A DNA stretch of 64,000 nt, taken from the sequence record MT478991.1; one strand, 5' to 3'. A program made the position numbers and the translations under genes. Positions 498-35,400 of the stretch are shown piece after piece (position 1 is the stretch's first letter; each line of letters starts with the position of its first letter). The notes under the pieces were generated by a model. It was given only the letters and a program-made list of their open reading frames with translations, made no database searches and was not told the origin of the DNA. This stretch comes from Escherichia phage vB_EcoM_011D4.

Positions 498-2549
498 TTA
501 CATTTTAAATTTATCTGGCATTGCGTCTACAGATACCAGATCAGCGATAAGCTGACGTAGAGTTGCCTTATCTGCTTTCTTACGTTCGGTTTTAGCTTCG
601 CTAATGAAGCTGGAGAAAGACAGGTCAGAAGCAGGTTTAACAACACCTTCACGGATGAATGCATCACCGTCCGCGATCATCTCGCCAGATTCTTGTAATG
701 CTGCCAGTTCATTTTTGTTCATAATATGTGCCTCAATGTAATAAGTTTCTTGTGAATCCGTCGATGCCGTAGCACGAGTTACCGTATCAAAGGATAACAC
801 AACACCGCGAGGAAGTAAAATCTCGCATTCTTTGTAAGCAAATGCTTTGTTACCTACTGGCAAGACAGGGATGTTTTCCGCGCCAGCAATGGAGAAAGCA
901 ACATTAGCGCCACCTTCACCGCGAGAGCCAGCCATAGAATCAACACCAGCAACGGCACTAGCCACGTTTGCATTCCAGCCGCCAAAAATGTTAGGTGCAA
1001 GGGAAGTGCTCACATAGTTTTTAAAGTAAAACGCTTTTTGCTTACGTGCAGTTTCCCACATTTGCGACCGGAAGTCCATACCACGATACAGAATAGTACC
1101 CGGATCAAGTTTAACTCCATAGTTGGAGAAGGCATTATCCAGTGCATCACACATCTTGACCAATTCTTCTGGATCTGCGATGCCTTCAAACTCTTCCAGC
1201 TTACGGTCGGTTAGGAAGTTGTTCATATTGATGTATGCTGCATCGGCATATTCGCTCAACACAAAACCTTCCGCGCCAGGCAGATCAAGATCAATATCTG
1301 CCATCATTTCACCCATGTTGCTAGCAATTGCTTCAAACATACCGGAAGCAACATTACGTAGGGCATCGGTTTTAATCTGGGTGATATGACTACGCAACAT
1401 TTCAGCTTTTACATCTGCTGGCATAGACTGGTCTACTCGATCCATTGCCAGAGCGGTGATCTTGTTTTCGAATACTTCCTCGCTCATGATTTCTTTTAAG
1501 CGTTTGATTGATGCTGCGATAACTTCCGCAGACAACGGATCATATTGATCCTGAACTTTTACCAGTTCGCTTACTGCGTATTTTGCATCGGCTTCGCTTT
1601 CAAAAATAGTACGCATGAAACCATAGCGAGTGATAATATCACTTGTCCAGTCATTCAGAGAACGGGCGGTTGAACGTTCTAAGGCTTGACGATCAATCAG
1701 AGTATTAAACTGTTTCTTAGGTTCGGCTTCGGTGATATCTTCTTCCGGTTTAAGATTAATTTTTTCTGGATGATTCACATAGTCGCTGTTATAGGTCGCT
1801 TGAGTTTTCAGCATTTCTTCTTTAGTCAAACGAGATTTAGCCGCTACGCGTTGTTCCGCTTCCGCGTTTCGTTCTTCTTCTGACACAAGACTAGCCGCAT
1901 ACGCCTCATCTTTAGTCAGAGATTCACCAGTAGCCTTAGATACCCAGCGATCACCTAAATCACTTTCTACTTTAGTGAACAAGGATTCATCAAGTTTAAT
2001 CCCTTTAATCTTATCAATCGCCATACCGCGACGCTTGACAACAACTAAAGCGATCTTTTTGCTGGTCATTACTTCCTGCTGGAATACTTCAAACTTCGGT
2101 GTACGACGCACCAAACGCTCTATAACGCGCTTAACCAGTTCGGTCTTACCTTTCATGCGGGATACGTTAAAACGGAACATAACAGCGTCTAACTGCGCTT
2201 TACGGGCTGTTTCCATAACCACATCAAAAGCACTTGCCATAACTGCAATCGGGTTATCGCCTAGACCATTTTTAAGCTGTACAATACGACCGCTTTTGTT
2301 CATTTCGCACAGTACAACATGTGCGGTCTTGTCACCCATACGAATGATTTTAGGTGTTTTGTTGGTGAAGTTACAAAGACGGACAATCACATCTTTATCG
2401 CGTGTCTGTACTGCAAAAAGCTGTTTAGGATTCTGCTTAGGCTTTAAGCACTGTACCGGGGCAATACTACCAAAGTTTTCTTCCTCTTCCGTCAACAGCC
2501 ATTTCTCGAAAGATTCAATCATTAGATCGTCGATTTCTAAGTTAAACAT
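498..2549 (-). CDS. alt: ADP-ribosyltransferase Alt (packaged head protein)
   Basis: 683 aa; recalled T4 Alt similarity incl. FYFKNYVSTSLAPNIFG vs T4 FYFRNFVSTSLYPNIFG, LYRG and ExE-type motifs; ATG with GAGGATATAAA RBS. Confidence 0.85.
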   Translation of the reverse strand: MFNLEIDDLMIESFEKWLLTEEEENFGSIAPVQCLKPKQNPKQLFAVQTRDKDVIVRLCNFTNKTPKIIRMGDKTAHVVLCEMNKSGRIVQLKNGLGDNPIAVMASAFDVVMETARKAQLDAVMFRFNVSRMKGKTELVKRVIERLVRRTPKFEVFQQEVMTSKKIALVVVKRRGMAIDKIKGIKLDESLFTKVESDLGDRWVSKATGESLTKDEAYAASLVSEEERNAEAEQRVAAKSRLTKEEMLKTQATYNSDYVNHPEKINLKPEEDITEAEPKKQFNTLIDRQALERSTARSLNDWTSDIITRYGFMRTIFESEADAKYAVSELVKVQDQYDPLSAEVIAASIKRLKEIMSEEVFENKITALAMDRVDQSMPADVKAEMLRSHITQIKTDALRNVASGMFEAIASNMGEMMADIDLDLPGAEGFVLSEYADAAYINMNNFLTDRKLEEFEGIADPEELVKMCDALDNAFSNYGVKLDPGTILYRGMDFRSQMWETARKQKAFYFKNYVSTSLAPNIFGGWNANVASAVAGVDSMAGSRGEGGANVAFSIAGAENIPVLPVGNKAFAYKECEILLPRGVVLSFDTVTRATASTDSQETYYIEAHIMNKNELAALQESGEMIADGDAFIREGVVKPASDLSFSSFISEAKTERKKADKATLRQLIADLVSVDAMPDKFKM

Positions 2550-3111: not shown

Positions 3112-3140
3112 ATTATAGGGGATCGATGATCCCCTGTCAA
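3112..3140 (-). promoter_or_regulatory. early promoter cassette; palindromic spacer GGGGATCATCGATCCCC
   Basis: TTGACA-17-TATAAT on minus strand. Confidence 0.55.
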
Positions 3141-3148
3141 CAAATTTT

Positions 3149-3667
3149 TTAGTTATTTTTTAATTGCTCATCTTGCAATAGGGCAATCACATGCTGGCGA
3201 TGTTCTTCCGATTGAGGCACACCGAAAAAGTTTGTTTTGTAGAAATACTCTAATCGGTCTTCTCGTGTGCTCTCTTCCATCATGATCGCGGGTAGTCCGA
3301 GATTTCGGAAACGTCGCTTTTCTGCTGGCGTAAAATCACTGTAATACAACATAGAATCATCATTACAAGCAATGCTAAACTCATCCTTCATAAAGGAGAA
3401 TATTGCGTTTAAACGCTGTTTACCGTCCACGATTTCGATCTCATAGCGAGAGCCATCATCAATCTTAGCCATTGCGATAGCACCAACCGGAAAATCATTA
3501 ATCAGGTTTTCGATAAACATACGTTTGTTTTCGGTGTCCCATACTAAAGGACGCTGATAATCTGGGTTCATGTTGATATAGCCATCTTCTAACCATGCAT
3601 CATAAACAGAGATGACAAAGTTTTTAGTATTGGTATAGTAACGGCGTTTAGGCGTTAAACGGTTCAT
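3149..3667 (-). CDS. DUF262 / ParB-Srx-like domain protein
   Basis: Motifs NPDYQRPLVW and IVDGKQRL typical of DUF262 (GmrSD N-terminal / ParB-like); start moved to ATG at 3667 with AGGAGA RBS; coupled to upstream gene (TAAcATG). Confidence 0.55.
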   Translation of the reverse strand: MNRLTPKRRYYTNTKNFVISVYDAWLEDGYINMNPDYQRPLVWDTENKRMFIENLINDFPVGAIAMAKIDDGSRYEIEIVDGKQRLNAIFSFMKDEFSIACNDDSMLYYSDFTPAEKRRFRNLGLPAIMMEESTREDRLEYFYKTNFFGVPQSEEHRQHVIALLQDEQLKNN

Positions 3668-3668
3668 G

Positions 3669-3998
3669 TTATAGTCTCCTGAATGGATCATCACGTAAAT
3701 CAATATCTTTTAAGAACTCATCCCATGAATGGCGGATGTTGTTCTTAATTCTCCAGATAAGAGCAGGGATTGAACGCTCTCCCATCTGGAAGTATGGATC
3801 ATATGATCCGTATGCCCAATATGCTACTACAATTCCACAATCAGCGCAATAGTATTCTATTTCACTTGCTGGCGACCAAAGTCCATCAATATGATCGGTG
3901 ATCTTGCTTTCGATGTTATGGCTATGACAATCAGGGCAACGGATGCAATGACCTTGTTTATCGTAATTTGACGTTAGCGAATACTTAAACAATCTCAT
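3669..3998 (-). CDS. Cys-rich zinc-ribbon protein (109 aa)
   Basis: CxxC...CxxC pattern (CIRCPDC ... CADCG); start overlaps stop of upstream gene (TAATG). Confidence 0.55.
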   Translation of the reverse strand: MRLFKYSLTSNYDKQGHCIRCPDCHSHNIESKITDHIDGLWSPASEIEYYCADCGIVVAYWAYGSYDPYFQMGERSIPALIWRIKNNIRHSWDEFLKDIDLRDDPFRRL

Positions 3999-4714
3999 TA
4001 TAGATCCTTATTTGCTTCAAATACTGCCTTTGCGAATCCTCGCGGGGTAAGTGACCTTATAGTCTTTGTTTTCGTTCCTTTCCCGCCTAGCTTAGAATGC
4101 TGTTTACTGTACCCTTTATTAATCTGCAACGGTTTCTTTTCTGGCATTATAAAGCCTTGTCCGGTCCATAAGCAAGTCTTTTTCGGGTACATATCACGGG
4201 CGGCAATATACTCAGGAAACGTAGGATGCTTATCATCTTCCGGCAAATAACCGCCATATTCCCACGGATGGAACATGTAATCAGGCTTACGCCACATGCT
4301 AGAGATAACGCTTACAGGATTCTCTATCATGTAGGGAACTCCGAGCCATTCACCCAAATAAGCGGTTATTTTAGCTGCCCGTACATCATGAACTTGAATC
4401 AATGGTCCTTGTTCTCGTTTCTTTCGTTCAAAGTGCGCAGCGCCACTAACAGCTAAATTGGTGCACGGTGGGAATGCAAAGATAATATCCGGTTTCCCCC
4501 ATTCAAGGTCCATTGCTCTTTCCAGCCAGTTCAAATCAATCCAGGTGTTTACATAGGTAATGTTTGGATGTTCAAATCTGGTATTATACTTTTTGTATGT
4601 ACCGTGGTCGGCGTCATCCGCATTAAAGCAGACTACCTTATGACCTGCTTTAGCCCATTCTAGCCCCATTATCCCCGATCCGTCAAAGTTGCAGAATATT
4701 AATTTTTGTTTCAT
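3998..4714 (-). CDS. C5-cytosine methyltransferase-like protein (short, no obvious TRD)
   Basis: FxGxG-type motif I (FCNFDGSGIMGLEWAKAGHKVV), PC motif IV (FAFPPCTNLAVSG), ENV-like motif VI (YMIENPVSV); only 238 aa. Confidence 0.5.
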   Translation of the reverse strand: MKQKLIFCNFDGSGIMGLEWAKAGHKVVCFNADDADHGTYKKYNTRFEHPNITYVNTWIDLNWLERAMDLEWGKPDIIFAFPPCTNLAVSGAAHFERKKREQGPLIQVHDVRAAKITAYLGEWLGVPYMIENPVSVISSMWRKPDYMFHPWEYGGYLPEDDKHPTFPEYIAARDMYPKKTCLWTGQGFIMPEKKPLQINKGYSKQHSKLGGKGTKTKTIRSLTPRGFAKAVFEANKDL

Positions 4715-4956
4715 ATACGACCCTTTAACCCAGCACAGATTTTAGTCGGTTCTTTACCGTGCCACATTAAGTAAATTCCGTTAATGCGTCCTTGTTTTGT
4801 ATATGATTCTTTTCTGATCTTCTTATAGTGTCGTGCTTCCTCCGCCGATTGTTTAGAATGTCGGTCATAAAGGAAGAGGAACAAAGGCCAACCATTAGCG
4901 ACCTTAATGCAGTTATTCAAAAATTCCTTATTTCGTTTAATTAATTTTCTTTTCAC
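4711..4956 (-). CDS. hypothetical basic protein (81 aa)
   Basis: GTG start overlapping upstream stop (GTGA); overlaps downstream start by 4 nt. Confidence 0.45.
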   Translation of the reverse strand: MKRKLIKRNKEFLNNCIKVANGWPLFLFLYDRHSKQSAEEARHYKKIRKESYTKQGRINGIYLMWHGKEPTKICAGLKGRI

Positions 4957-5204
4957 GCTGCCCCCATTGGTTTGATAGTAACCGAATCTAAAAGACCTTT
5001 GTTAGCCAGTTCGCGGCAAGTTTTCAGATCCGCAACTTCCCAGCCAGCCGCAATCAGGTTATCAATGAGGCTGTTAGCAACTTCTTCGCTCATGAAAGAG
5101 CACTGTTTGCCGATGGTGTAGCGCACACGCTGTAATTTCAGTTTACGGAAGCCTTTAACGTTCAGGTCTTTAGCGATTTTCTTTGCGGTTTCGATGTTAG
5201 CCAT
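4953..5204 (-). CDS. hypothetical protein (83 aa)
   Basis: ATG with AGGAGAATCAAACA leader; first gene after promoter cassette at 5245-5273. Confidence 0.55.
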   Translation of the reverse strand: MANIETAKKIAKDLNVKGFRKLKLQRVRYTIGKQCSFMSEEVANSLIDNLIAAGWEVADLKTCRELANKGLLDSVTIKPMGAA

Positions 5205-5244
5205 TGTTTGATTCTCCTAAGTGGTATCTCGTCTTGATGGTTGT

Positions 5245-5273
5245 ATTGTAGGGGAGTTATCCTCCCCTGTCAA
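5245..5273 (-). promoter_or_regulatory. early promoter cassette; palindromic spacer GGGGAGGATAACTCCCC
   Basis: TTGACA-17-TACAAT. Confidence 0.5.
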
Positions 5274-5287
5274 CACTTTTTATAAAA

Positions 5288-5455
5288 TTATTTGTTAATT
5301 TCTGGTGCGTTGCTAGGATAGTAACCTTCTTTAACTCCGAGGTATTTCGCAACCATCCCTACAATCTTCTGTGCTACTACAATGTCAAATTTCAGATAAT
5401 CTTCACCGTAGGTTTCAATGATATATGCTTCACATGCTGCTTTAGTCTCGAACAT
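5288..5455 (-). CDS. hypothetical small protein (55 aa), paralog of 8544-8711
   Basis: Hand translation MFETKAACEAYIIETYGEDYLKFDIVVAQKIVGMVAKYLGVKEGYYPSNAPEINK; about 85 percent nt identity with 8544-8711 by eye. Confidence 0.5.
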   Translation of the reverse strand: MFETKAACEAYIIETYGEDYLKFDIVVAQKIVGMVAKYLGVKEGYYPSNAPEINK

Positions 5456-5488
5456 TTTGATTCTCCTATTTCGTTTCGGTATGTGTGC

Positions 5489-5517
5489 ATTATAGGGGAT
5501 CTCCCGATCCCCGTCAA
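5489..5517 (-). promoter_or_regulatory. early promoter cassette; near-palindromic spacer GGGATCGGGAGATCCCC
   Basis: TTGACG-17-TATAAT. Confidence 0.5.
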
Positions 5518-5530
5518 CAACTTTTTTAAA

Positions 5531-5812
5531 TTATTCGTGATTAGTTTCGATGTTGTGCATTTTGCACCAGTTCAGCCAATCGCCAAGATCTTGATAGTTG
5601 ATGCTTTTATCTGCTGCCATCGTTTTTGTCTTGATACCCATATGTGCGTTATGAGTAAGCATTTTTACAGTGAACTCGATTTTATCGCCTTTAGCTTTAA
5701 CATCAACCAGTTTGGTCCACTGGCTACCAGCGCCGCGAATGTTCATACCAACGATGTTTCCGATGTATGCTTCTTTGTTTTTCAGGATTTCGGTTGCTTT
5801 GATGAATTTCAT
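5531..5812 (-). CDS. hypothetical protein (93 aa)
   Basis: ATG, RBS GGAGAATCAAAA, promoter cassette upstream. Confidence 0.55.
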   Translation of the reverse strand: MKFIKATEILKNKEAYIGNIVGMNIRGAGSQWTKLVDVKAKGDKIEFTVKMLTHNAHMGIKTKTMAADKSINYQDLGDWLNWCKMHNIETNHE

Positions 5813-5844
5813 TTTTGATTCTCCAGTTCGTTTCGGTATGGGTG

Positions 5845-5873
5845 TATTATGCTATGTTCTTACTTTGGTGTCA
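5845..5873 (-). promoter_or_regulatory. early promoter cassette
   Basis: TTGACA-17-CATAAT plus conserved leader. Confidence 0.55.
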
Positions 5874-5881
5874 ACAACTTT

Positions 5882-6151
5882 TTAGATATTTTCAGAAATA
5901 AATTTTAAAACTTGACGTAAATGTTTCTCATCTTTGATAGTCGCCGGAAGTTCTTCTTTTACTTCCTGTGCAAGATAGATATTTCCGTTCCAAGTGAAAG
6001 ATCCGTCTTCGTTTACGAGATAGCTGAACATCCACTCGCAATCATTTTCGATTTCATATACACACAGAAGGGTGTAATCGTTAAAGCTATTGATTTCAAG
6101 GTCGAAGCCGTGACGTTTTGCAAAGTTGGTAGTGGTTTTAGTCAGTGCCAT
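5882..6151 (-). CDS. hypothetical protein (89 aa)
   Basis: ATG, RBS AGGAGAATCAAACA, promoter cassette upstream. Confidence 0.55.
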   Translation of the reverse strand: MALTKTTTNFAKRHGFDLEINSFNDYTLLCVYEIENDCEWMFSYLVNEDGSFTWNGNIYLAQEVKEELPATIKDEKHLRQVLKFISENI

Positions 6152-6191
6152 TGTTTGATTCTCCTAAGTGGTATCTCGTTTCGATGGGTGT

Positions 6192-6220
6192 ATTATGCTA
6201 TAGGCGTGTTCTGGTGTCAA
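6192..6220 (-). promoter_or_regulatory. early promoter cassette
   Basis: TTGACA-17-CATAAT plus conserved leader. Confidence 0.55.
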
Positions 6221-6244
6221 TTCTTTTTTTAAAAAATTTTATGC

Positions 6245-6271
6245 AATAAAAAAGCCGACGCTAAGGTCGGC
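6245..6271 (-). terminator. rho-independent terminator
   Basis: GCCGACCTTAGCGTCGGC then TTTTTTATT. Confidence 0.6.
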
Positions 6272-6279
6272 TAATAAAA

Positions 6280-6591
6280 TCATTTAGACAAATAATCATT
6301 CTGTGCAATCCGGTCGGCGTATGCTGGTGTTACGTCAATCGCAATCACTTTAACGCGTGCTTTCTTGCGACCTGGGTTTTCTCGTAACCAGTGCTCATGA
6401 CCGTGCACATTTTTATACTTTGATGCTTCTTCGAAGGTACGGATCGGACCTGGGTAATCAGCGTAAAGGATCTCTAGATCTTCGGTGATGTAAAAATATA
6501 CATCGTAATTGCTGTTCTCTAGCTTAAGCAGAGACTTTCGGAACATTGGGAGATTTTCGCGGGTAAATTCAAAGATATTATCTTTCATAGT
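6280..6591 (-). CDS. hypothetical protein, paralog family A (HxHW...IAIDV motif)
   Basis: Start moved to ATG at 6591 (RBS GAGGATAATACT); track start 6735 would overlap upstream gene and a terminator. Confidence 0.55.
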   Translation of the reverse strand, partial: TMKDNIFEFTRENLPMFRKSLLKLENSNYDVYFYITEDLEILYADYPGPIRTFEEASKYKNVHGHEHWLRENPGRKKARVKVIAIDVTPAYADRIAQNDYLSK

Positions 6592-6610
6592 ATTATCCTC
6601 AATAGTTGGA

Positions 6611-6632
6611 TGAAAAGGGGGCTTAACGCCCC
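6611..6632 (-). terminator. rho-independent terminator
   Basis: GGGGCGTTAAGCCCCC then TTTTCAT. Confidence 0.55.
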
Positions 6633-6637
6633 ATATA

Positions 6638-6925
6638 TTAAAACAGTCCTTCCTGTACACCGTAATAGAGTTCGTCGCTGATAATTTCATTAATGCGACG
6701 GTGTGCATATTCCTGATTTGCGAAGTTGTCAGCAAGTTCTACTTTAGTTTCTCCGTCATGAGTCCATTTAGTGATAACTTTACCATCTGCAAATTTGAAG
6801 TTGAACTCTTTAGCTACCGCATCGCGTACCAGACGTGCAAACTTATTGTTGCGGATTGCATTGTCGGTTTCGTGTGCAGCGTGAGCGAATTTGTTAACTT
6901 TCAGAGTGATAGTAATGTATGCCAT
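6638..6925 (-). CDS. hypothetical protein, paralog family B
   Basis: 95 aa; weak similarity to 9912-10223 (AKEFN region); promoter cassette upstream; terminator downstream. Confidence 0.55.
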   Translation of the reverse strand: MAYITITLKVNKFAHAAHETDNAIRNNKFARLVRDAVAKEFNFKFADGKVITKWTHDGETKVELADNFANQEYAHRRINEIISDELYYGVQEGLF

Positions 6926-6971
6926 AATTTGATTCTCCTAGTTAGAAAGTGTATCTCGTTTCGATGGGTGT

Positions 6972-7000
6972 ATTATGCTATACACCCGACCTCATGTCAA
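6972..7000 (-). promoter_or_regulatory. early promoter cassette
   Basis: TTGACA-17-CATAAT plus conserved leader. Confidence 0.55.
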
Positions 7001-7006
7001 CACTTT

Positions 7007-7285
7007 TTATAAAATAATTTTTTGATATTTTTCTATGATGTTTGTGTAGGTCACATCAACCGCTAGCACCGTTGCTTCGAATCCACCGTCTAGCCAATGG
7101 CTATGATCTCTTTCATCAAAGAAGCCGAGGCCAATACGAAGACCATCCTTAAACTCTGCGCGTACATTTAGATCATCATCGATAAACAGATAAAACCATG
7201 AATTTTTACTAGGATTGATGATACAACCTTTCAGATTAGGGAGAATATCACGACTAAGAATAAACTTATCACCTACTTTGAACAT
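7007..7285 (-). CDS. hypothetical protein, paralog family A
   Basis: Start moved to ATG at 7285 (RBS GAGGAAAATATT); motif HSHWLDGGFEATVLAVDV. Confidence 0.5.
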   Translation of the reverse strand: MFKVGDKFILSRDILPNLKGCIINPSKNSWFYLFIDDDLNVRAEFKDGLRIGLGFFDERDHSHWLDGGFEATVLAVDVTYTNIIEKYQKIIL

Positions 7286-7299
7286 AATATTTTCCTCAC

Positions 7300-7608
7300 T
7301 TATAAAGTTTGACCGTTGTTTTTCGCGTAATGCTGAATGCGTGCTTGATCTGCTTCCGCTGGTGATAGATTCCATGCGATCACTACAACTTCTGACGCAT
7401 CATGATCATTATCACTTACCCAATGATTGTGATTCATACAGTTATTTGCTATCGCGTGAGAAAATGATTTCATCACTGGAGACGTATAATCATAGTAACG
7501 GATTTTCAGATTTTCATCAACGTACAAATAGATCGTATAAGGTTTATATTCAGTAACCAGTAACAGACAGTTACGCAATTCTGGGAAAATCTTTTTAGTT
7601 AATTTCAT
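7300..7608 (-). CDS. hypothetical protein, paralog family A
   Basis: Motif NHNHW...VVVIAWNL; RBS GGAGAACTAGAAT. Confidence 0.5.
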   Translation of the reverse strand: MKLTKKIFPELRNCLLLVTEYKPYTIYLYVDENLKIRYYDYTSPVMKSFSHAIANNCMNHNHWVSDNDHDASEVVVIAWNLSPAEADQARIQHYAKNNGQTL

Positions 7609-7810
7609 ATTCTAGTTCTCCGTAATACACAGTAATCCATTTTTCTTCATACTTTGTATCTTTCCAGCACACAATCCCGTTTACTGTGCAATCTTTGGAA
7701 TTGACGAATGATTCATATTGTTCTGCATCTTCCATCATTGCATGAGCGGTCTTTTCATCGAATATATCGCAGATCGCTTTATATGCTCGATAATCTTTAA
7801 ATTTGCTCAT
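7595..7810 (-). CDS. hypothetical protein, paralog family C
   Basis: MSKFKDYRAYK... similar to product of 7813-8022. Confidence 0.45.
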   Translation of the reverse strand: MSKFKDYRAYKAICDIFDEKTAHAMMEDAEQYESFVNSKDCTVNGIVCWKDTKYEEKWITVYYGELEYEIN

Positions 7811-7812
7811 AA

Positions 7813-8022
7813 TTAACACCAATCAAGAGTTTTTGAGAAAACCTCTATCCATTGTTGAGTATATGCGGTTTCTTTCCATGACACAATACCAGTCGAATAA
7901 TGGTTTTTGTTTCCAGAAAAGGACGGGCATTTTGATGCATCTTCCATCATCTTTTCGGCGAACTCTGGTGCGTATACTCGCAAAATCTGTTGATATGCTT
8001 TGTATTCTTTAAATTTGCTCAT
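7813..8022 (-). CDS. hypothetical protein, paralog family C
   Basis: MSKFKEYKAYQ...; tandem to 7595-7810. Confidence 0.45.
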   Translation of the reverse strand: MSKFKEYKAYQQILRVYAPEFAEKMMEDASKCPSFSGNKNHYSTGIVSWKETAYTQQWIEVFSKTLDWC

Positions 8023-8287
8023 AATCATTCACTACCTTATCAGCTTCTTTTGTTGTTTTTACATCAACTGCGATAACTCGTAAAGGTTCGTCATGGTTCC
8101 ACCAGTGGTCATGAATATCGGCTTGTGATTTATCACCAAAGGAATCACGAATATCATTTTTACATTTATAGCTAATGTGACCGTCATAGTCAACATAAAG
8201 GTAATTATCGAAAATCGGCGTTTTTAAGATCATACCGAAAAATCTTTCTTTGTGTGTCTTATCCAGCGTTGCAGTAATTCGCATCAT
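8009..8287 (-). CDS. hypothetical protein, paralog family A
   Basis: Motif HDHWWNHDEPLRVIAVDV. Confidence 0.5.
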   Translation of the reverse strand: MMRITATLDKTHKERFFGMILKTPIFDNYLYVDYDGHISYKCKNDIRDSFGDKSQADIHDHWWNHDEPLRVIAVDVKTTKEADKVVNDYEQI

Positions 8288-8299
8288 AATATATTCCTC

Positions 8300-8479
8300 T
8301 TAGAAAGGGATGGTCATTTCTTGAGCTTGTACATTCTCGTTAGGATTAAACTTCATCCAACCGATATTGTCTACCAGCATATGCACATTTTTATCATATC
8401 CTACGTGGGTAGTCAATACTGTATGTGCTTTACCTTCAATGATGAGTTCCATGTACTTCTGAACTTCGATAGCTTTCAT
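8300..8479 (-). CDS. hypothetical small protein (59 aa), below ORF-track cutoff
   Basis: Hand translation MKAIEVQKYMELIIEGKAHTVLTTHVGYDKNVHMLVDNIGWMKFNPNENVQAQEMTIPF; RBS GGAGAATCAAA; promoter cassette upstream. Confidence 0.45.
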   Translation of the reverse strand: MKAIEVQKYMELIIEGKAHTVLTTHVGYDKNVHMLVDNIGWMKFNPNENVQAQEMTIPF

Positions 8480-8511
8480 TTTGATTCTCCGTTTGTTGTC
8501 TTTATGGGAGT

Positions 8512-8540
8512 ATCTTACTACTCCCTTTAATCATTGTCAA
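8512..8540 (-). promoter_or_regulatory. early promoter cassette; hairpin GGGAGTAGTAAGATACTCCC across -10
   Basis: TTGACA-17-TAAGAT. Confidence 0.5.
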
Positions 8541-8543
8541 CTA

Positions 8544-8711
8544 TTATTTGTTAATTTCTGGTGCGTTGCTTGGATAGTAACCTTCTTTAACACCCAGATA
8601 TTTTGCAACCATTCCGGTGATCTTCTGTGCTACTACGATATCGAATTTCAGGTAGTCTTCACCGTGGTTTGCTACAATGTATGCTTCGCATTCTGCTTTA
8701 GTCTGGAACAT
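8544..8711 (-). CDS. hypothetical small protein (55 aa), paralog of 5288-5455
   Basis: MFQTKAECEAYIVANHGEDYLKFDIVVAQKITGMVAKYLGVKEGYYPSNAPEINK; start moved to ATG at 8711. Confidence 0.5.
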   Translation of the reverse strand: MFQTKAECEAYIVANHGEDYLKFDIVVAQKITGMVAKYLGVKEGYYPSNAPEINK

Positions 8712-8745
8712 TTTTGATTCTCCTATATCTCGTTGGTATGTGTGC

Positions 8746-8774
8746 ATTATAGGGGATCACAGATCCCCTGTCAA
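8746..8774 (-). promoter_or_regulatory. early promoter cassette; palindromic spacer GGGGATCTGTGATCCCC
   Basis: TTGACA-17-TATAAT. Confidence 0.55.
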
Positions 8775-8779
8775 CAACT

Positions 8780-9073
8780 TTATAATGCTTTATATGCGTA
8801 TTTCATAAATTTGTCTGCCACTTCATTGGCATGTTCAGATTCTACGCCTGATTCGAGAACAATAGCTAGGTCGGTTTCGTCATTCCCGCCGTACCAATGA
8901 TTTGATGTTCGATTTTTTTCAATTGGAAATTGGTCACTTTTATCTGTGCGACAAAATACATCTAAATGCTCGTCTATGTAAAAGATCCAATCCTCATAAA
9001 GAATAACGGTATTAGCCAGATTTTTATTGCCTTCAACGAAAGGTTCAGCTACAAATAGCTTAGTTTGTTCCAT
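8780..9073 (-). CDS. hypothetical protein, paralog family A-like
   Basis: Start moved to ATG at 9073 (RBS GAGGAAATTACT); motif NHWYGGNDETDLAIVLE. Confidence 0.5.
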   Translation of the reverse strand: MEQTKLFVAEPFVEGNKNLANTVILYEDWIFYIDEHLDVFCRTDKSDQFPIEKNRTSNHWYGGNDETDLAIVLESGVESEHANEVADKFMKYAYKAL

Positions 9074-10268: not shown

Positions 10269-10297
10269 AGTATAGGGGATCGGTGATCCCCTGTCAA
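10269..10297 (-). promoter_or_regulatory. early promoter cassette; palindromic spacer GGGGATCACCGATCCCC
   Basis: TTGACA-17-TATACT. Confidence 0.5.
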
Positions 10298-27703: not shown

Positions 27704-27731
27704 ATTATACATTACCACATCAGCATGTCAA
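27704..27731 (-). promoter_or_regulatory. early promoter cassette
   Basis: TTGACA-16-TATAAT. Confidence 0.5.
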
Positions 27732-27758
27732 CACCTTTTTCATAAAATTTTAGGCAAT

Positions 27759-27790
27759 AAAAAAGCCTCCCCGAAGGGAGGCTGTAAAAT
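27759..27790 (-). terminator. rho-independent terminator downstream of gene 32
   Basis: GCCTCCCTTCGGGGAGGC then TTTTTTATT. Confidence 0.65.
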
Positions 27791-27793
27791 TCA

Positions 27794-28735
27794 TTAGAGA
27801 TTCAGAAGAGAATCAAGGTCATCCAGATCCGAAGCGGAGGAAGTACCGCCACCCAGGTCCAGAGATGCCATCAGGTCATCAGCGGAAGAACTCGACGCGG
27901 TGATAGCTGAGGTAGTACCAGCGTCGAATGCATTCATCTGAGCATCGAAATCATCAAGCTGGCTGTTAATCGCTGCCGCAGCACTGGAAGCCGCAGCACC
28001 AGCTACCATAGACACGCCCATAGTTTTCTTAAATTTGGTTTCCAGTTCATCAAACGGTTTAAACTGGCTAGGTGCTACAATCTCACCCAGATCAACCATG
28101 TTTTCCATCAGATATTTCTGATATGCTTCGTCTTCAATTTTCGGAAGCTGTGATTGCTGCATGAAACGAGAATCATCATAGTTCTGGTGTTTATCAACCT
28201 TCTTAGCTTTCAGGAGGAAGTTAGCGCCAGAGAACACACAAGTTACATCGACCGGAACTTCGCCCATATCGGTATTCACGTTCACCATTGCAACGATCTT
28301 ATCATAAATTTTCTGACCGAAGCGGAATTTGAATACCTTACCTTCGTTTTCTGGTGCTTGAGGATCTTTCAGTACCAGAATATTTGCGTAGTAAGACGCT
28401 TTACGTTTAATCAGTTGCCATTCGGTTTTATCGGTATTGTACAGATCTTTTTCGTTAATATATTTGCACACCGGGCAAGAATCAAAATCACCGTGGGTGC
28501 TGGAGCAGTTTTCCCAATACCATTTTCCATTAACTTTGAAGGAATGGTTTACCAGTTTCACAATCGGCAGACCGTCTTCTGTCTTAGACGGCAGGAAGCG
28601 AATCAGGGCTTCACCGTTACCCGCTGCATCAGTCTTAATCTTCCACTCTTTCGGATCTTCTTTGGAAAAACCGTTGCCACCTTTCAGTGCGGCCAGTTGA
28701 GCTTGCAGTTTGGAGCTATCTTGACGTTTAAACAT
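27794..28735 (-). CDS. 32: single-stranded DNA-binding protein gp32
   Basis: Strong similarity to recalled T4 gp32 (FLPSK, CSSTHGD.DSCPVC zinc site, [15 protein letters not shown], acidic C-terminus); start at ATG 28735 (track start is GTG). Confidence 0.9.
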
Positions 28736-32400: not shown

Positions 32401-35400
32401 ATGGCAGATTTTTCTCAACATTTCAAGGCCACATTTGGCTTTGACGCTGGTAATGAAAAGGTCGTCAATGTAGCATTGGCTGATAAGAATGTCAACACCG
32501 ATGCGGTCAACGTTGAATTTTTCAATTACCATAATGGTATTACTCAGTATGACACAACTCGCGGTTATGATCAATACGGAACTACAATCTATCAAAACCG
32601 TCCATATTATGCAAAAGAAGATATCACAAAGCCAGCAGGTGATTTTGACCCGACTAAATGGCAAGCACTGCGCACGGACCCACGTTGGGATTATGTTGCA
32701 GCAACTTCCGGTGATACTCCTTTACAGTCTGGTGATTATATCGCAGCAGATGGTCAATTTGCAAACTTGACTTTCTCTATGCCAACTAAACCAGCAGAGG
32801 GAGACACTATAACAGTAAAAGATATCGGTGGCAAGTGTGGTGTTAACGAATTATCGTTCTTGAGTTCAGGACATGAGTTTTACCATAACGGTAATGTGTA
32901 TAACCGAAAATGGTATTGCACTACCCCGTATGCAATGAACTATTTCATCTTTGTTCGTAATCGTTGGCATGTTTATCAGACAGGAACAGAGCCACGCGGT
33001 GTGTATGCACAGCCAGCGATTGATGCTATTCAAATGCAGAATGGTGATCAGGTATTTCGTCGTAGTTCGTTGGGTAATATTACCTTAGTGCTTCCTAAGT
33101 TTGCCAACAATGGCGACATGATCCAGACTACAGACCTTGACGGATTAACCGCAACCAACCACGTTACGGTTAAAGTTCATGAGCACGCAGAAGAACAATC
33201 AATTGGCACGTCCGGTCTAAAAGAGATTATCGGTAAGCGTAGCGGTCATGGTGTATTCATCTTTGACAAGACGGAAAACTTATGGCGTTTGTGGGATGGT
33301 GATCAGTCTGTTCGTCTTAAACCGATCATCGATGACACTCGCTTGCAACCTAATAGCTATGTTGCCGTATTTGGTGATCGTGATGTTACTCTGACGCTGC
33401 CGACCAATGTCGAGCCGGGTGATCGTATTCAAGTTTCTATGCAGTATATGCACGGAAACCAGAATTGCCGTATTATCACCGCCACAGAGGATACAAAAAT
33501 CCTTATGCAGAAAAACATGGTTCAGTTTCCTAAGCGTAGCGAGTACCCATTCAATGGGACCGATACATGGACGGGAGTATCTGAATTGTCTTTCAACGCT
33601 GCAAATGATTATGTACCTTATCTGGAGTTCTCTTATTCAGAAGGTGATGATGGTAAGAAATACTGGTTGGTGGCACATGCTCACCCGATTGTAGAACGAG
33701 TAGATCCGACTCGTAAAGATCGTGTTGGTGTAATTGCACTGGCTACCCAGGATGAAACAAACAAAAACCATGAAGATAATCCTAGCGACGAAGTTGCGGT
33801 GACTCCAAAGGTTCTGGCTAATAAAACAGCCAACGAAACTCGACGCGGTATTGCTCGCATTGCAACTCAAGCGGAAACGCATCAAGATACTGGTTCCAGC
33901 TTCCTGGATGATGTTATCGTTACGCCTAAAAAGTTAAATAATTGTGTTGCTACCGAAGCCCGTCGTGGTGTGATGGAAATTGCAACCCAGCACGAAACCA
34001 ATGAAGGTTTAGACGATACCCGCGCTATTACTCCTAAGAAATTAGAAGAACGTCGCGCTTCCGAAGATCTCGCTGGTATTGCTGAAATTGTTCAGGCTGG
34101 CGGTAGTGCTGCCGCTCGACGTGGCGAAGCTGGTACAGGGATCTATAACATCAACGACCATGCTAAAATTGTTACGCCACAAAACATCAACGAAGTCAAG
34201 GCGACCGAAACTTCCCGTGGTGTTGGCTATCTGGCAACTGACGCGGAAGTGCAAGGGGCTACAGAATCAACCCCGCAAGATGCTTTACTAATCACGACTC
34301 GCACGCTAACGAAACGTACTGCTACCGAATCGCGCACTGGTATCGCTGAAATTGCAACTCAGGAAGAAACAAACTTAGGTCAAAGTGATAACCATATCAT
34401 CACGCCTAAAAAGCTGCATACTCGCCGCGCAACGGAAACTTTACATGGTTTAGCAGAAATTGCAACTCAACCGGAGTTTGACGCAGGTCTTGACGATGCT
34501 CGCATTTCTACCCCATTGAAGATTAAAACCTTCTTTGAGAATGCACAGCGTTTGAAAGTAGATCCGACTCAGGGGCTTAACCTTACTGGTGATTTGTGGC
34601 AAGGTATCATGATTCGCGGTCTGGACGCAACCGAAGACACAAAAGGTGTCGCTAAAGTTGCTACTACTCAGCTTACGGATGCTGGTCAAGATGATACTAC
34701 AATCATCACGCCTAAAAAGCTGCAAGGCAAAAAGGCCACCGAAGGTAAAGAAGGTATTATCCGAGTTGGTACTCAAGCCGAAACCGTGGCTGGTACACTG
34801 GCTAATGTAGCAATTTCTCCGAAGAACTTCAAATATGTTGTTCAGACAGAGGATACATGGAAAGCAACCGAAGCGCGTCGTGGTTTCTTGAAAGTTGCCA
34901 CTCAGGAAAACTGTTTTGTTGGTGATAATCTGCAAGGTTCTACTCAAGAACTAGGAAACTACCAGCATGACGGAATTGCTGTTACTCCGAAAGGATTAAA
35001 CTACGCACTTGCTAATTTCTTACCTAAGATGGCAACCGCTCAGAATAGTTTGAAATTGGGTAACGTAGAGGCCGCTAAATGGGCGCGTAGAGACATTGAC
35101 CAGACCATAGAGAGCAATTACACGTTTAATAAAAACGTTAACGTGAAGGGCGATTTAGGGTGCTTAAAATCTGGTTCCTTTGAAACTCTGTCTGTGACTA
35201 AGAACTCGACCGATGGTCCGAGTAATGGTCATCTGGTGTTGGGTGAGCGTGGAGTTGACGGTCACACCGGAATTACTCTGCATGGCACAACCGCATCGGA
35301 AGGCATGAAAAACTCGTGGTCTATTATCGTTGGTGGTACTGGAACAGCGCAAGTTGTTGATAGTGATGCTATCGCTTTCGGTAAAATCAATGATGGTGGA

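Follow-up and report, generated by a model that had tools for sequence, protein, structure and literature searches.

Why does this phage genome carry two copies of a 55-codon gene, each behind the same type of promoter cassette, and how old is the duplication? A sequence-only reading of the window (the whole stretch of 64,000 nucleotides from Escherichia phage vB_EcoM_011D4, record MT478991.1) took the pair to be a recent duplication and direct evidence that cassette-gene units duplicate and move within this genome. The window comes from a Krischvirus, that is, an RB49-like T4-type coliphage of the family Straboviridae. The region 4900–9200 matches 58 phage records; the 25 matches listed are all RB49-like Krischvirus with 92.7–97.4% nucleotide identity, and ELT3 is the closest relative among those 25. 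Both copies lie within the hyperplastic region bounded by alt and DNA ligase (gp30), in which small hypothetical ORFs have the same type of cassette ahead of each or every few of them (Table 1).

We refer to the two genes as copy A and copy B. Both ORFs are present where the sequence-only reading had placed them and encode the two peptides that it quoted; it did not give their strand, which is minus. The coding sequences align colinearly and without gaps at 143 of 168 nucleotides (85.1%), in agreement with the 85% that had been estimated by eye, and the start-to-start spacing of 3256 bp likewise bears out the estimate of 3.3 kb. The proteins are identical at 48 of 55 amino acids (87.3%). A BLASTN comparison of the two copies gave E = 8e-51, which rules out chance similarity, so we rejected that explanation. 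Orthologs were assigned by sequence and position, using the gene numbering of RB49 and phi1: RB49p191 is 98.2% identical to copy A, and RB49p205 is 98.8% identical to copy B (nucleotide identities).

Table 1. Coordinates of the duplicated genes, their promoter cassettes, and neighboring features in the window.
Feature	Position	Strand	Remarks
alt	498-2549		ADP-ribosyltransferase domain
Copy A, 55-codon gene	5288..5455	-	Ortholog of RB49 ORF191 (RB49p191) and phi1 ORF191; PHROG 8009
PeSL cassette driving copy A	5456..5530	-	AT-rich tract, promoter, hairpin, conserved 5'UTR, SD AGGAG (5467-5463)
Promoter of copy A cassette	-35 TTGACG 5517-5512, N17, -10 TATAAT 5494-5489	-	11/12 promoter match
Hairpin of copy A cassette, GGGGATCGGGAGATCCCC	5512-5495	-	Palindromic spacer; centroid structure in fold
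Next PeSL downstream of copy A	5205..5287	-	Drives ORF190 ortholog (4953-5204)
Parts of PeSL 5205..5287	-35 TTGACA 5273-5268, hairpin GGGGAGGATAACTCCCC, -10 TACAAT 5250-5245	-	Fold z = -3.7
Genes between the copies	5531..8479	-	Orthologs of RB49/phi1 ORFs 193-204, all hypothetical
Copy B, 55-codon gene	8544..8711	-	Ortholog of RB49 ORF205 (RB49p205) and phi1 ORF205; PHROG 8009
PeSL cassette driving copy B	8712..8787	-	Ortholog of RB49 PeSL206/205; SD AGGAG
Promoter of copy B cassette	-35 TTGACA 8774-8769, N17, -10 TATAAT 8751-8746	-	12/12 promoter match
Hairpin of copy B cassette, GGGGATCTGTGATCCCC	8768-8752	-	Palindromic spacer; centroid structure in fold
Next PeSL downstream of copy B	8480..8543	-	Different subclass; drives ORF204 ortholog (8300-8479)
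Hairpin of PeSL 8480..8543, GGGAGTAGTAAGATACTCCC	Overlaps -10 TAAGAT	-	Fold z = -3.2; promoter match 10/12

The cassettes correspond to a known element, the promoter-early stem-loop (PeSL), which was described in RB49 and phi1 (Arbiol et al. 2010, PMC2839356). Each PeSL is made up of an AT-rich tract, a consensus sigma-70 promoter, a stem-loop of the form Gn-loop-Cn (most often in the -35/-10 spacer), and the Shine-Dalgarno sequence (SD) and start codon (ATG) of the following ORF; these elements cluster in hyperplastic regions, upstream of ORFans (PMC2839356). In both of our cassettes, the sigma-70 promoter is near consensus (11 and 12 of 12 positions) and there is a Gn-loop-Cn stem-loop inside the spacer between -35 and -10. 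The sequence-only reading had seen a palindromic GATC spacer ahead of each gene, and these are indeed hairpins of the form GGGGATC-N3/4-GATCCCC. An AT-rich tract (TTTAAAAAAGTTG...) follows the upstream stop codon and precedes the -35, and the cassette ends in TAGGAGAATCAAA-ATG, with a consensus SD 7–8 nt before the ATG of each copy. Both cassettes are in a hyperplastic location upstream of an ORFan: the alt–gp30 region holds small hypothetical ORFs only, and the gene belongs to a tiny family. Finally, recombination between PeSLs removes or moves the genes that they flank, as seen from chimeric PeSLs and from a crossover within a PeSL in phage FL04 (see below). With all of the sequence-level features present, the cassettes of copies A and B are, by sequence, the published PeSLs.

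The window has 15 exact matches to TTGAC-N15-19-TATAAT, all on the minus strand, versus 0.49 expected, and the promoters of the two copies are among the top-scoring sites in our promoter scan. Similarly, there are four GGGGATC-loop-GATCCCC hairpins in the window, versus none expected. The cassette of copy B is predicted to be a strong promoter by orthology: positions 8712–8779 are identical to RB49 PeSL206/205 at 67 of 68 nucleotides, and a lacZ fusion to that PeSL gave about 13,000 Miller units, which makes it a very strong promoter (PMC2839356). Terminator function was tested for PeSL211/210 alone (PMC2839356). Our terminator scan did not call an intrinsic terminator at any of the PeSL hairpins, which are not followed by a T-tract, and a role as terminators is not supported for these hairpins by that scan.

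The sequence-only reading had raised the alternative that the identity is confined to the promoter and the ribosome-binding site, and we rejected this once the copies were aligned. The similarity between A and B starts about 8 nt upstream of the -35, continues through the 5'UTR (with a 1-nt indel ahead of the ATG) and the entire ORF, and ends one base past the stop codon. The repeat units (A, approximately 5287–5524; B, approximately 8543–8781) are about 238 bp long, and their right edge, at the stop codon, falls immediately ahead of the following PeSL's -35. In other words, the duplicated segment is exactly one module, or one cassette period, from the AT-rich/-35 region of a gene's own PeSL to its stop codon. 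The cassettes upstream of A and B are 83% identical to each other, as compared to 61–73% for other cassettes in that family.

To ask how old the duplication is, we compared the two copies across the genus. A tblastn census of our phage collection found the gene in 58 Krischvirus records, with two copies in 51 of them and one copy in the other 7, so the duplication is common to nearly all RB49-like coliphages. We fetched the loci from 12 of the 58 records for comparison. Among ten of these loci, orthologs (A with A, or B with B) were 96–99% identical at the nucleotide level, while every comparison of A to B gave 84–87%. For the pair in the window, the Nei-Gojobori method gave dS = 0.84 and dN = 0.064; the average dS between A and B was 0.95 across 40 pairs, or 1.06 over the first 49 codons, as against 0.024 among A orthologs and 0.052 among B orthologs. 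Because dS is 0.84–1.06 between the copies versus 0.02–0.05 among orthologs, the duplication long predates the point at which the sampled genus diverged. The ratio dN/dS between A and B is about 0.06–0.08, which shows that each copy encodes a protein and is subject to purifying selection. The duplication is thus old and would have been present in the ancestor of the sampled genus, with the reservation that gene conversion keeps dS from dating it precisely; the earlier description of it as "recent" does not hold.

The divergence is spread unevenly, both between the copies and along the gene. We polarized the seven amino acid differences with two outgroups, a 54-amino-acid homolog from an unclassified metagenomic contig and a 51-amino-acid gene from the siphovirus swi2. 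Copy B is derived at four of the seven (residues 3, 14, 15, and 16) and copy A at residue 7, with the remaining two ambiguous; at the protein level, then, copy B is the more derived copy, carrying most of the changes. At synonymous sites, A and B are closest to each other (pS of 0.57, versus 0.74–0.91 to the two outgroups). Along the gene, the final 48 nt of the ORF hold just 1 of the 25 nucleotide differences (binomial P = 0.0024), and dS drops from 1.44 in codons 1–40 to 0.125 in codons 41–55. This pattern would fit a later homogenization of the 3' end. The longest perfect runs shared by A and B are 17–28 nt. Within the window, A and B are by far the closest pair of paralogs (87% amino acid identity versus 43% or less for five others).

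Several genomes carry natural recombinants. To map these, we relied on 91 alignment columns at which A-type and B-type sequences show fixed differences, along with alignments of the junctions. Brandy, JK32, and UPWr_E1 lack copy A and have one chimeric PeSL between ORF193 and ORF190. This PeSL takes its AT-rich tract, -35, hairpin, and -10 from the cassette ahead of copy A and its 5'UTR and SD from the downstream cassette; the junction is just 3' of the -10 (ACACA|CATCAAG). The site is exactly 244 bp shorter than in the window, which corresponds to one ORF plus one PeSL. By junction mapping, the right-hand partner in this type of excision is the PeSL at 5205..5287. MIZ4 has a larger deletion of the same type, which runs from the PeSL upstream of copy A to the PeSL before ORF185 and has likewise left a single chimeric PeSL at the empty site.

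In Cognac and FL04, the genes on both sides of the single copy identify another kind of event. The neighbors of B (ORFs 206–209) are upstream and the neighbors of A (ORF190 and ORF189.1) are downstream, and the distance from ORF206 to ORF190 is 319–322 bp, as compared to 3576 bp in the window. The approximately 3.3 kb between the copies is absent, which is equivalent to 5531..8479 plus one repeat unit. In Cognac, the switch from B-type to A-type sequence falls in the interval from -18 to +7 (counted from the ATG), and there is a small B-type patch at +114 to +120; in FL04, the switch is between -107 and -25, inside the PeSL. Because the crossover positions differ, these are two independent deletions. 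Both losses arose by recombination between A and B as direct repeats. A paper on Cognac and Brandy does not discuss these deletions. The loss in Cognac and FL04 shows that plaques can form on the isolation hosts without the genes between the copies (roughly a dozen, the orthologs of ORFs 193–204).

Shorter tracts have also been exchanged. Copy A of PTE-Eco09 has a B-type tract from -25 to +24, and copy B of both PTE-Eco09 and Brandy has an A-type tract from +57 to +75 that covers five consecutive diagnostic sites. These tracts represent gene conversion. In Brandy, the A-type patch in copy B is present even though copy A is now gone. PTE-Eco09 also has a chimeric PeSL210/205 and is without ORFs 206–209. 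Since the crossovers are scattered over the PeSL and into the ORF, we favor general homologous recombination over a site-specific enzyme. Overall, the genomes of the relatives support the shuffling of cassettes, which is an already-known mechanism.

We think it quite likely that A and B are old paralogs that originated as PeSL-ORF modules, by homologous recombination between PeSLs in an ancestor, and that both were retained and are still recombining. In this explanation, the module would be a PeSL (AT-rich tract, sigma-70 promoter, G-rich spacer hairpin, 5'UTR, and SD) together with a small ORF, which would make it self-contained for early expression. The general recombination machinery of the phage would have duplicated the module in an ancestor of the sampled genus. 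The boundaries of the unit, which span one PeSL period, are what would be expected from recombination between PeSLs in their AT-rich/-35 parts. Two routes could have led there. In one, a mini-circle with a PeSL and its ORF would be excised and then re-inserted into another PeSL; in the other, there would be an unequal exchange between PeSLs of two copies of the genome, followed by the insertion of other cassettes between the duplicates. The present sequences do not distinguish these routes, and no footprint survives at the target site, since the PeSL downstream of A is of another subclass than the one downstream of B and the similarity of the two is generic only. After the duplication, purifying selection would have kept both copies, and the copies and their PeSLs would remain substrates for homologous recombination, which would lead to the precise loss of modules, to deletions between the copies, and to short gene-conversion tracts.

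Some of these steps have precedents in RB49. A mini-circle named '192H' was sequenced and contains ORFs 191–194, and its crossover falls after the -10 and before the ATG in the flanking PeSLs (PMC2839356). It includes ORF191, the ortholog of copy A, and the crossovers of the mini-circles are in the same zones as the natural junctions that we mapped (between -10 and ATG, or inside a PeSL). Of the two halves of the cycle, excision alone was physically shown, and the re-insertion of mini-circles is a proposal by Arbiol et al. (Fig. 3 of PMC2839356). One could go further and read the ORF191/ORF205 pair as the footprint of such a re-insertion, with PeSL-ORF units as mobile cassettes that copy themselves without a recombinase and with the two copies retained through specialization and meanwhile homogenized in part by conversion. 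This is a tentative idea that we lean against. If it were true, then the four derived changes in B, at residue 3 and residues 14–16, could mean that the copies act on two variants of one host target. As to the claim that units duplicate and move, a cassette-gene unit was duplicated, and in other genomes it was excised, deleted, or converted at its cassettes, so that much stands; "direct evidence" within this genome claimed too much. What the pair offers is a footprint that fits PeSL-mediated duplication, and its sequence gives neither the original event nor the direction.

A rival to duplication is that A and B are xenologs, with one copy (probably B) acquired from a diverged relative by recombination at PeSLs during a co-infection. 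The gene does move between phages, since its family occurs in unrelated phages that lack PeSLs: Swiduovirus swi2 and Salmonella siphoviruses have homologs with 72–74% amino acid identity, Sashavirus-like phages have homologs with about 42% identity, and an unclassified contig has one with 85% identity. A vehicle would be available as well, as PeSL mini-circles are reportedly packaged in virions (PMC2839356), and the synonymous divergence of A and B is near saturation in codons 1–40. We nevertheless consider this scenario unlikely, because, at synonymous sites, no outside homolog that we found is as close to A or to B as the two are to one another, their upstream PeSLs are the most similar pair in that family of cassettes, and our searches of phages, proteins, and representatives turned up no donor lineage that has a B-like gene alone in a different context.

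The other two alternatives do not invoke an old pair of paralogous genes. If the similarity were maintained by an RNA or DNA element, with the ORFs being incidental, this might account for the nearly identical last 48 nt and for the location of the unit among structured promoter cassettes. The differences between the copies look instead like those of a protein-coding gene: they are distributed 4/4/17 across codon positions 1/2/3, with dN/dS of about 0.07, and siphovirus homologs keep the frame and length despite saturation at their synonymous sites. Given this pattern, and the consensus SD before each ATG, we rejected a non-coding element, which we consider highly improbable. A recent duplication, or an assembly artifact from the collapse or expansion of a repeat, has even less to recommend it: it would explain just the similarity of 85% by eye and the short distance between the copies. 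That both copies occupy matching positions in 51 genome records, which were assembled independently, excludes an artifact, and a paralog dS that is about 20–40 times the ortholog dS, together with 25 differences in 168 nt, the identities among orthologs and paralogs, and the census, refutes a recent origin. We give this reading practically no credence.

How do these duplicated units compare to other modular systems? Morons, a concept of Hendrix and colleagues, were defined in temperate lambdoid phages; they are usually single acquisitions and have an atypical composition. Like a moron, the PeSL-ORF unit is a small non-essential gene with its own promoter, and possibly a terminator, that lies between neighbors and is present or absent among close relatives. 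Unlike in morons, the regulatory flank of a PeSL unit is a dispersed repeat in its own right and provides the homology on which recombination acts. Another comparison, to the gene cassettes of integrons, was made by Arbiol et al. themselves (PMC2839356). Both are small promoter-associated modules that can form circles and be inserted or excised at recurring sites. In integrons, however, the IntI integrase acts at attC and attI, whereas the crossovers of PeSL units are scattered over the PeSL and the ORF, which argues against a single recombination site. We view integrons as an analogy only and would not file the PeSL unit as an integron cassette.

Paralogs such as the rRNA operons and tuf genes of bacteria are segmental duplicates that evolve in concert, by gene conversion and by deletion between direct repeats. 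The A/B pair has the same hallmarks: direct repeats about 3.3 kb apart, deletions, short conversion tracts, and uneven divergence. What sets it apart is that its repeats span only about 240 bp and match at 85%. Because the perfect runs between A and B are 17–28 nt at most, recombination here works on very short homology. Taken together, the unit losses, the deletions between copies, and the conversion tracts indicate that 17–28 nt of perfect homology suffices for rearrangement in these phages. The A/B pair could serve as a handy marker of intragenomic recombination rates in therapeutic RB49-like phages.

The closest parallel is the shuffling of PeSLs itself (PMC2839356; Comeau et al. 2014, PMC4122927), which involves the same genus, the same hyperplastic region, and the same cassettes as in the window. 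Those papers describe insertion, deletion, and replacement, as well as excised circles, and where they speak of genes, the words duplication and paralog do not occur; they report no intragenomic copy of a whole PeSL with its ORF, no deletions between two such duplicates, and no gene conversion between them. A literature search for RB49p191, RB49p205, or PHROG 8009 did not find any paper. PeSL shuffling has been in print since 2010 (PMC2839356), so that ORF191 and ORF205 as paralogs, together with the natural recombinants, are a new example of a known process and not a new kind of system. A duplicated PeSL-gene unit of one cassette period, along with natural recombinants, does provide natural-history support for the PeSL model. 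The pair fills in an example and leaves the current understanding unchanged.

The proteins of both copies match the profile of PHROG 8009, a family without known function, over their full length (residues 1–55 of 55; E = 1.7e-37 for copy A and E = 1.2e-38 for copy B). Searches with the 55-amino-acid sequence against Pfam, PADLOC, and PDB sequences gave no match. A word-index search of 5.8 billion proteins found five clusters. An exhaustive profile search of 1.84 billion representatives gave nine hits, of which about five are convincing small homologs; the remaining hits were to long proteins that matched over 20–40 residues only, and we took these to be spurious. An AlphaFold2 model from a six-sequence alignment had a mean pLDDT of 55.7, with short helices predicted in the N-terminal two-thirds. 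Both genes are probably expressed early. Our guess, from position and promoter type only, is that they might encode a small host-interaction protein of the early phase.

A homolog that is 85% identical to copy A (P0003) is found in the segment 5484–5926 of L013, an unclassified contig of 7652 bp from Logan SRR5584643. It directly overlaps an upstream ORF that resembles a neighboring gene from Krischvirus, has no PeSL, and adjoins genes for a PHP-domain protein and a 2-hydroxyacid dehydrogenase. The contig matches phages only over the homolog and its upstream neighbor and may represent a very different phage or element that shares a two-gene block. We did not accept P0003 as an outgroup from a relative, as the contig is not from Krischvirus; it is usable for polarizing changes and not for dating.

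Several other features of the window are worth recording. Besides A and B, there are five much older pairs of small paralogous ORFs with 29–43% amino acid identity, all on the minus strand: 7595–7822/7813–8028, 21109–21276/21276–21449, 7300–7608/6280–6735, 9338–9640/7007–7375, and 43685–44017/43247–43576. Two of these pairs are in tandem and overlap by a few bases. Small early genes seem to have been duplicated repeatedly in this genome. The window is enriched in GATC, with 362 sites versus 257 ± 15 in shuffles that preserve dinucleotides, and one subfamily of PeSL hairpins has two GATC sites each (3118–3134, 5495–5512, 8752–8768, and 10275–10291). In the same part of the genome, the minus-strand ORF at 3998–4714 is a DNA methyltransferase according to the RB49 annotation (RB49p189) and had no Pfam hit in our analysis. 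The minus-strand ORF at 3149–3703 matches the N-terminal domain of the type IV restriction enzyme GmrSD (PF03235, E = 7e-20), which is unexpected in the early region of a phage.

In some cases, the homology between cassettes continues into the first codons. ORF190 (4953–5204) and the minus-strand ORF at 2616–2828 both start with MANIE, and a repeat that we labeled D10 (5169–5247 versus 6116–6194) shows that the ORF at 5882–6151 shares its 5'UTR and start region at 77% identity. Recombination between PeSLs may create chimeric N-termini. Another repeat, D11 (6215–6284 versus 27726–27795; 70 nt at 77% identity), joins the -35 side of a cassette to a canonical terminator made of a hairpin plus a T-tract. 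This terminator (AAAAAAGCCGAC...GTCGGCT) was called at 6272–6253, and the composite is unlike the G-rich hairpins of the PeSLs. Elsewhere in the window, at 33835–34781, there are five copies of a 41-nt repeat (D9) that looks in-frame, with a spacing of 108–372 nt and 63–73% identity to the reference copy; a repeat pair at 34378/34684 (D14) is related to it. They presumably correspond to a protein motif that recurs within a large structural gene.
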